Shown here one piece after another: positions 61,301 through 62,546 of a stretch of DNA of 64,000 nucleotides. A program made the translations under genes and the position numbers. The notes under the pieces are model-generated. The model was not told where the DNA came from and did no database searches. It saw only the letters and a program-made list of their open reading frames with translations. The stretch covers positions 41,230,001 through 41,294,000 of the forward strand of contig NC_086375.1 of NCBI RefSeq assembly GCF_036588685.1. The letters are read 5' to 3'. Every line of letters starts with the position of its first letter. Within the stretch, counting starts at the first letter, position 1. This DNA comes from Mytilus trossulus (taxonomy: Eukaryota).

Positions 61301-62546
61301 CAGTTAGGGGCCTCTTATACAATGTAGCTGACTATGTGATATGGGCTTTGCTCATTGTTGAAGGCTGTACAGTGACCTTAAATTGTTAATTTCTGTGTCA
61401 TTTTGGTTTCTTGTGGTGAGTTGTCCCCTGGTTTTTGTTAGTCTTGTATTATTTTTAATTTTAATTTCTTGTGTATAATTTGGAGTTCAGTATGATGTCC
61501 ATAATCACAGAACTCCATGAAGTATACTGAACTAAATGTACAAATGTAGTATATACATTGTATATTTGTTTAGGGGCCAGCTGAAGGAAGCCTCCAGGTG
61601 CAGAAATTTCTCCCTGCATTTAAGACCTATTGGTGACCTTCTGTTGTCAGGTTGTTGTCTCTTTGACATATTTCCCATTTCCATTCTCAATTTTACCATT
61701 AGCAATCATACCACTTCTTTTTAATATAAATTAGGTATATTAGGGTAGGCACGGAAATGTAAAGATCTATCAAATGATTAACCCCTCTGTTGACATAATA
61801 AGCATAACCAGACACAAAACAGTGTTTAAATAGAAGTCTGGCCCTAAAATTAAGTTAGATTAAAATAGGGGGGGGGGAATATTTGGCCACATTCATTAAA
61901 CAAGTTAAAACTTACCTGCAGCTTCACCAAGAAAAGCCAACTTAAACTTCAATAAAGAGCTCCTGACATAGTTATTGTTAGAGATATCCATTGCTTTCTG
62001 AGCAAAACTCATTTTAATACAATAAGAAGGATGTTCAAATGGATTAAAAGGTCTAAGAACTTTTATCTTGTGTTGTATCCTGTTTGTAATTGTATATTAA
62101 TGTGTCATTAAATGTGGTCTACAGCTCTAAAATATATGTTATATCATAAGTTCCATGCTGGCAGGTGATTCCCTATGATGAAATTTCATTTCTAGCACAA
62201 TTAGTAATATTAGGTGCAATTTGTTCATCTAATTATCCTGAATTTATGTCATGAATGTGTCTGCATAACATTCCAACAAAACAAGTGCATGCAATTTGCT
62301 TTTCTAAATACAATTTCATTGAACGGTTAGGTCGCCAATTGTATGGAAATTAGTATTAAATGAAAAATAATTTATTATTAAAAGTGATGACTCAATGTGT
62401 GCATGACATGATTGGTTCACAACGAAGTCGAATAGGTAAACACGACCACTTCCGCTACATCGTCATCGGAACTTACCACTTTGTTCACCTAGAAAAACTA
62501 ATTTAAACTTCCTCAGCGGGTTCCCGAATTCCCCAGAGGAACTCAT
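52355..62546 (-). CDS. RAB6: Ras-related protein Rab6, 208 aa; exons 62546-62477, 59689-59631, 57816-57763, 57022-56917, 55865-55754, 54991-54898, 53700-53637, 52422-52355
   Basis: Phase-consistent GT-AG exons total 627 nt and give [208 protein letters not shown]. It ends in a CXC prenylation motif. Confidence 0.97.
52423..53636 (-). other. U12-type (minor spliceosome) GT-AG intron, Rab6 intron 7
   Basis: The 5' site reads GTATCCTTT (from 53636). The branch sequence TTCCTTAAC (52442-52434) lies just upstream of the 3' CAG. Both match the U12 consensus. Confidence 0.9.
54154..54727. mobile_element. MITE in Rab6 intron 6 with internal palindrome
   Basis: TIR gtaggtccggtaag / cttactggacctac. 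Internal inverted pair aaagtggccgcatccgtgttcatcc / ggatgaacacgaatgcggccacttt at ~54380-54490. Confidence 0.7.
60197..60500 (-). mobile_element. Short Helentron-type (HINE) repeat in Rab6 intron 1
   Basis: acaagaatgtgt...atgcccc end with a hairpin, a GACA/GACG microsatellite and an aaacatagtgccc...catcaaaa other end. Same architecture as the other HINEs. Confidence 0.55.
61916..62012 (-). CDS. RAB6: Putative alternative first coding exon of Rab6 (exon 1b)
   Basis: Encodes [32 protein letters not shown] plus one G, followed by gtaagt. It is homologous to exon 1 (...[14 protein letters not shown] plus G, gtaagt) and has the same phase-1 donor position. In-frame ATGs are at 62012 and 61991. Confidence 0.75.

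Follow-up and report, generated by a model that had tools for sequence, protein, structure and literature searches.

The window analyzed here, a 64,000-nucleotide stretch of Mytilus trossulus DNA, carries a Rab6 gene on its minus strand, for which the exon models reproduce the four annotated proteins letter for letter. These proteins form a two-by-two set, combining either of two first coding exons (1a or 1b) with either of two last exons (A or B), and the two models that start with exon 1b are identical, again letter for letter, to the M. trossulus RefSeq isoforms X1 and X2. Exon 1b comprises 97 nt (32 codons plus one nucleotide), the coding part of exon 1a comprises 70 nt, and both end in phase 1 (Table 1). 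Rab6 appears to be single-copy, as every match with at least 74% identity in a genome search (150 of 251 candidates scored) lies in this locus; on this basis, we reject the idea that the splice junctions described below stem from a second Rab6 gene.

Very high-copy repeats are found within intron 1 of the gene, at approximately 60200-60450 and 61200-61830, where the summed contig depth reaches up to approximately 117,000. At the opposite end of the gene, the C-terminal CXC prenylation site is present at the end of both last exons. Two alternative tail types were also observed in clams, gastropods, starfish and insects, and three in oysters. In yeast, the tail binds Rgp1, one of the subunits of the exchange factor (PMC11618376, in excerpt), and therefore the choice of the last exon in Rab6 may represent a switch older than exon 1b.

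Elsewhere in the window, three B-box genes are located on the minus strand (35147-33465, 18711-17009 and 13344-11768), the first of which also has a weak NHL match, and the other two being split over more than one open frame; these genes resemble members of what we take to be an expanded TRIM-like family of mussels. In addition, a retroelement with overlapping long frames lies at approximately 2900-8100 of the plus strand, with a reverse transcriptase match at 5625-6410, and a fragment at 41161-40577 is reverse transcriptase-like by appearance, with no Pfam match. In the genome, contigs C1, C2, C7 and C8 contain many clustered, intron-free Ras-superfamily-like frames with 25-35% identity to Rab6, which suggests an expanded GTPase-domain family.

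Table 1. Positions of the Rab6 exons and associated elements in the window.
Feature	Position	Strand	Remarks
Canonical exon 1a, coding part	62477..62546	-	GEQS; 5' leader to at least 62677 in run X11
Transcribed region 5' of exon 1b	62013..62476	-	5' leader or read-through intron; contig cover
Coding part of exon 1b, from its ATG to the phase-1 donor	61916..62012	-	N-terminus, beta-1 strand, P-loop GEAA (first four)
Second in-frame ATG of exon 1b	61989..61991	-	G at -3 and +4
Exon 1b splice donor	61910..61915	-	CAG/GTAAGT, full consensus
Exon 2, shared	59631..59689	-	VGKT and switch I; acceptor for exons 1a and 1b
Exon 3, shared	57763..57816	-	
Exon 4, shared, one copy	56917..57022	-	DTAGQ
Exon 5, shared	55754..55865	-	NKTD
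Exon 6, shared	54898..54991	-	ETSAK
Exon 7, shared	53637..53700	-	
Alternative last exon A	52355..52422	-	Hypervariable tail ending CAC, to stop
Alternative last exon B	44323..44390	-	Hypervariable tail ending CSC, to stop

Origin and splicing of exon 1b

A previous, sequence-only reading of this DNA had proposed exon 1b to be an in-phase duplicate of exon 1, located about 460 bp downstream of it. This was borne out by the present analysis, since both exons end in phase 1 and are followed by a GTAAGT donor, with 464 nt separating the 1a donor from the 1b ATG; moreover, joining exon 1b to exon 2 indeed yields the predicted GEAAVGKT in place of GEQSVGKT, in a 217-aa protein identical to records P0013 and P0008. 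When compared by BLOSUM62 with the last 14 residues of exon 1a, exon 1b obtained a score of 42, the runner-up among 2817 open phase-1 GT donors in the window obtaining 16 in the same comparison, and none of 400 simulated introns reaching 42 (maximum 32). The resemblance between the two exons is not due to chance. The accompanying statement that many codons differ between them stands for part of the sequence only: both P-loop codons, Q22 and S23, differ at all six bases, whereas in the K13-E21 core 23 of 27 nt are identical, the changes being three synonymous and one replacement. The regions flanking the two exons are alike no more than by composition (14 of 54 intron bases, and 19 of 60 far-upstream bases).

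A search for a third copy of exon 1 returned none in the window, and none on the strand of the gene within a further 10-kb segment extending to 9 kb past the window end. In vertebrates, the duplicated exon of RAB6A/RAB6A' is exon 4. In the mussel gene, the LQLWDTAG motif of this exon occurs once on the minus strand, in agreement with the earlier remark that no second exon 4 is visible, and a duplicated internal exon around switch II, as in RAB6A/A', is absent.

Splicing of exon 1b was evaluated in seven of 24 listed runs, all of them consisting of assembled contigs, presumed to be RNA, that carry no tissue label. Mapping of the junction to exon 2, as had been suggested, revealed it in two of the seven runs, both from study P3: X4, from organism A, and X12, from organism B. 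In these, contigs stop matching at 61916 and continue with 29 loose letters, which match exon 2 from its first base and are the same as the loose end found at the 1a donor. Exons 1a and 1b are thus a homologous pair, in the same phase, with both donors joining exon 2 in X4 and X12, as tandem duplicated exons are. Contig depth, a poor measure of expression, was 21.7 for 1b versus 355.8 for the canonical form in X4, and 25.3 versus 531.5 in X12, i.e., approximately 5-6%. Contigs of X10 and X11 contain the 1a junction only, and those of X1 and X5 contain the 1a junction with no cover in the bin that includes most of exon 1b; such contig holes prove nothing in any of the four runs. In X2, an unspliced contig (depth 2.1) extends over the 1b donor, with no cover of exons 1a or 2 among the matches listed. 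In addition, two records of approximately 1.4 kb each, P0019 and P0017, each encode an entire protein of the GEAA type and thereby imply spliced transcripts; judging from tails unlike those of the named Mytilus proteins, they probably belong to other mytilids. Overall, we regard it as virtually certain that exon 1b is genuinely spliced.

Probable translation of exon 1b and start of its transcripts

The sequence-only reading had also invoked selection rather than decay, and had staked its isoform on finding the junction and an open exon conserved in related species; both were found, and protein-level constraint is supported by synonymous-only allele differences and by a conserved peptide. In X4, the contig differs from the coding part of exon 1b at three positions, all of them synonymous (55 of the 279 possible single changes are synonymous; P approximately 0.008). 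In X12, no differences were detected in the 97 coding bases, versus 10 substitutions and three indels in the 339 bases upstream, the absence of replacement changes being not significant alone in this run (P = 0.10). Only one of the 32 positions of the 1b peptide is variable (V/I) among the five named Mytilus species, and three of 25 positions differ in P0019. Exon 1b might in principle be a decaying duplicate of exon 1 that contributes nothing other than splicing noise, as could be argued from its minor depth and from its junction being present in two of seven runs only. However, both exon copies are conserved across the five named Mytilus species and two further records, in all of which exon 1b retains its frame, start and junction, the allele differences are synonymous-only, and the coding part is free of indels despite several upstream. 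This explanation is, therefore, largely refuted and hardly credible. Based on the synonymous-only variation and on the conservation, exon 1b is very probably translated.

The point at which translation starts is less clear, as P0019 begins at a methionine equivalent to the second in-frame ATG of exon 1b (61991), whose context is better than that of the first ATG; the in vivo start of the 1b protein is, for this reason, uncertain, leaving a product of either 217 or 210 aa. The M. galloprovincialis 1b models (P0006 and P0014; 249 aa) differ by 32 extra residues, derived from an upstream ATG. The frame of that ATG (position 62108 of the window) is closed after three codons here and crossed by indels in other alleles, and the extension is probably an artefact of longest-frame annotation.

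Regarding the origin of 1b transcripts, for which the sequence-only reading had inferred an alternative promoter with possible tissue restriction, the X4 contigs, at a depth of 16-22, form an unbroken tiling that begins within exon 1a (62506) and ends at the 1b donor (61916), and there is no cover at 61845-61906, just past that donor. Read-through from the main promoter with use of a second donor is hence possible. Contigs of X10 cover 62137-62506, and contigs of X1 and X5 are also found in this interval. In a read-through RNA, 14 ATGs would separate the 1a donor from the ATG of exon 1b, and the frame opened by the 1a ATG would reach a stop after 27 codons, 547 nt before the junction, so that the RNA is probably poorly translated or degraded. 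From these data, one could propose that exon 1b mostly represents an alternative, unproductive 5' donor: RNA from the main promoter would skip the 1a donor (GTG/GTAAGT), use the stronger 1b donor, which is nearer the consensus, and become a nonsense-decay target by virtue of the 27-codon 1a frame, trimming Rab6 output and yielding little 1b protein. We consider this improbable as the main role of the exon, as it leaves unexplained the synonymous-only variation, the conservation of the peptide across species and the existence of conserved oyster versions (see below); moreover, the X12 contig that contains 1b begins at 62351, even though contigs cannot give transcription starts. X12 also has a cover gap at 62352-62476, a contig hole that proves nothing. 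The 339 nt upstream of exon 1b, counted from 62351, contain 10 ATGs versus 5.6 expected, unlike an efficient leader; none of the ATGs lies in the 95 bases immediately upstream (62107-62013), where 1.0 would be expected, a difference that is not significant. The conserved 1b frame favours a shorter, productive transcript with a start of its own, beside read-through forms, and we lean, if slightly, towards a separate start site for it within intron 1. A productive own-start mode and an unproductive read-through mode can coexist.

Counterparts in mussels, oysters and Lingula

To place the 1b N-terminus among other Rab6 proteins, 413 proteins were fetched, of which 337 contain the start of exon 2. 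The canonical eleven-residue stretch precedes it in 305 of the 337, from fungi to vertebrates. The other fronts comprise 11 mussel sequences with GEAA, five oyster sequences with SLFGEMG and one Lingula sequence with CLLGNLG, the remainder being three with GDQS, two with GKQS, two near-canonical, and eight truncated or mispredicted. Within Mytilus, the 1b isoform is present in automatic annotation of M. trossulus (XP_063428173.1, XP_063428175.1), M. edulis (XP_071163020.1, XP_071163021.1), M. galloprovincialis (XP_076098937.1, XP_076098938.1), M. coruscus (CAC5391123.1) and M. californianus (XP_052105752.1/53.1/55.1). These RefSeq/GenBank models carry automatic names, and neither function nor promoter evidence was seen there.

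The oyster type was found in Ostrea edulis (isoforms X7/X8), Crassostrea/Magallana gigas and angulata (X5), C. virginica (X4) and one Logan contig. Joined to exon 2, these fronts read GEMGVGKT (P0138, P0252, P0256, P0286 and P0288), and that of Lingula anatina isoform X2 reads GNLGVGKT (P0147). Both alternative N-termini, known from annotated proteins, join at the exon-2 boundary of the mussel gene; in oysters a canonical isoform exists beside the alternative form, and the Lingula type rests on one model. V17, Q22 and S23 are replaced in each of the three alternative types, and K13 and G20 are retained; in place of Q22 and S23, every one of the 11 mussel-type sequences has AA and every one of the five oyster sequences has MG. 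Over 14 residues, mussel 1b shares nine with the canonical tail and six with the oyster tail, and the canonical and oyster tails also share six; oyster versions of different genera have 12 of 14 residues in common. Mussel 1b and the oyster type have no identical derived residue, and the overlap of their changed core positions has a P of 0.06 under a uniform model. As a separate observation, the oyster and Lingula types have F18L, S23G and a Trp upstream of these in common (5 of 14 residues identical), a weak hint of common origin.

The mussel isoform had been regarded as independently evolved, a view that has to be qualified, given that oysters and Lingula carry an equivalent N-terminus: the exon either predates mussels or arose more than once. 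No such N-terminus was seen among the matches listed for scallop, clam, gastropod, chiton, annelid, arthropod, echinoderm and vertebrate proteins, for which isoform sets are partial, and a scan of metagenome contigs for the mussel-type and oyster-type exon returned zero matches. Two marine metatranscriptome records, P0158 and P0160, combine a Rab6 body with the front KYKVVFLGKQS; P0158 has the same tail as P0159, whose front is canonical. These fronts are possibly another alternative first exon or assembly chimeras, and both records were set aside as counterparts, being unassignable and possibly chimeric.

Predicted P-loop effect and significance

The 1b protein, as deduced from its sequence, is a Rab6 variant rather than a non-member of the family. 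Its exons 2-7 are those of the canonical form, with switch I, interswitch, switch II and the G2-G5 motifs of Rab6; its best PDB matches are Rab6A/B (E = 1e-106), and its Pfam Ras score is 201 bits versus 204 for the canonical form. The G1 motif GxxxxGK[S/T] is intact as GEAAVGKT, and the two forms do not differ from V24 onwards, a part that comprises G25-K26-T27, the two switches and the tail. What departs from Rab6 lies upstream of V24, where V17, Q22 and S23 are replaced by Ala, so that the Q22 and S23 typical of Rab6 are lacking, and L11 and K13 are kept. Q22 and S23 align with G12 and G13 of Ras, the numbering being derived from the alignment, and yeast Vps21 presumably has the same Ala-Ala P-loop as 1b. 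Structural searches and models are of little help here: a PDB search with 21 residues of exon 1b returned no match, and AlphaFold2 models of the 1b isoform had a mean pLDDT of 52.9 (32-sequence alignment) and 62.6 (86-sequence alignment), with the 1b residues below 50 in both, low values that were obtained for the 1b form alone and are hence not attributable to the exon swap.

Functional expectations can be drawn from other Rabs. In the structure of ELKS with Rab6B, as presented in an excerpt of PMC10267580, L11 and K13 are Rab6-specific contacts of ELKS. Since these two residues are kept and V24 onward is shared, effector binding and Golgi targeting of 1b Rab6 are predicted to be unchanged. 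In PMC4531439, Sec4 S29V and Rab3A S31V are reported to release GDP intrinsically 3- to 4-fold more slowly, and GEF-stimulated release is slower too in Sec4 S29V. These substitutions are at the position of Q22 and, as in 1b, put a non-polar residue in place of a polar one; nevertheless, they are engineered Ser-to-Val changes in other Rabs, whereas 1b carries natural Gln-to-Ala and Ser-to-Ala changes in Rab6. By this analogy, a non-polar residue at Q22 would most likely slow GDP release and dull the response to the exchange factor, making 1b Rab6 a differently timed, most likely slower-activating, form. A direct effect on the exchange factor is not implied, as the Ric1-Rgp1 complex shows no ordered P-loop and the contacts described in the excerpt of PMC11618376 are at switch I and the tail. 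Whether there is a kinetic difference that matters is, in our judgment, an even bet.

It is also conceivable that the isoform matters for expression only, the 1b protein working like the canonical one and the exon being conserved for a second start site or translational control, with drift of the P-loop tolerated. The P-loop change would then stem in part from a shift of the last codon ahead of the donor to the full CAG/GT consensus, and the S23A codon does provide the CA of the consensus donor CAG/GTAAGT. The motif GxxxxGK[S/T], as defined for the whole family, leaves the middle positions of the P-loop free (PMC5902221, in excerpt), and the residues changed in 1b are those free positions, so that the changes may be merely tolerated. 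Moreover, the Pfam Ras score is nearly unchanged, the new residues differ among mussels (AA), oysters (MG) and Lingula (LG), which argues that no single new residue was selected, and the overlap between mussel and oyster changed positions fails to reach significance even under the uniform model. On the other hand, the predominance of the canonical stretch with QS indicates that these residues are not freely tolerated in canonical Rab6; AA and MG are each fixed in their own groups, and the Q22 and S23 codons were changed at every base next to a core that was largely kept. Taken together, a purely expression-related role seems unlikely, if by no means far-fetched.

In the explanation we favour, the conserved tandem duplicate 1b is joined to exon 2 in a minor mRNA, which would begin at its own start site in intron 1 and would be translated into a Rab6 with the same effectors and targeting but a different pace of the GDP/GTP cycle; as a whole, it stands about as good a chance of being right as wrong. 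A more speculative proposal, which we find rather doubtful, is that mussels, oysters and the brachiopod kept, or separately evolved, a second Rab6 with the same outputs, partly uncoupled from its exchange factor or GAP, so that first and last exons would combine into a two-by-two, timer-by-address set.

Production of two Rab6 proteins from one gene by tandem duplicated exons is likewise known from vertebrate RAB6A/RAB6A' (10.1101/2023.04.29.538821, PMC3735572, both in excerpt). According to the excerpted sources, RAB6A and RAB6A' differ in three residues, are equally and ubiquitously expressed (PMC3735572), and differ in KIF20A binding (PMC7538953); there an internal exon is duplicated, whereas in the mussel the swap affects the first coding exon, and with it the P-loop, and gives a minor second form. 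RAB6C and RAB41 (Rab6d) of primates also belong to the Rab6 family and, like 1b, have altered GTP-binding elements (PMC3735572, PMC10267580, in excerpt), both carrying G25A and R63G, which impair GTP or effector binding (PMC10267580). These are, however, separate genes, and mussel 1b derives from the same gene as the canonical form and keeps G25, K26, T27 and R63. Further background on Rab6 is given in PMC3327705 (in excerpt). No account of an alternative first exon of Rab6 in molluscs was found in the full-text literature, searched by titles and abstract openings and with subscription journals mostly outside; apparently, the 1b isoform is already in automatic annotation yet undescribed.

Exon 1b is, then, a real and conserved variant of tandem duplicated-exon splicing. 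Its significance is tempered by the fact that duplicated-exon splicing is a known route, used by Rab6A itself, and that the functional difference of 1b is only predicted. Nevertheless, Rab6 belongs to a set of five Rabs that occur throughout the eukaryotes (PMC5902227, in excerpt), its P-loop sequence is almost fixed, and 1b changes the first exon only, the rest of the protein being identical. Such a natural swap isolates the role of Q22 and S23, which makes it testable by comparing a pair of recombinant proteins. That oysters, and possibly Lingula, have such a swap points to an old, unnoticed isoform or to repeated duplication at one site. If the second Rab6 is indeed a partly uncoupled switch, it would constitute a natural experiment on why Rab6 retains QS in its P-loop, from fungi to vertebrates.
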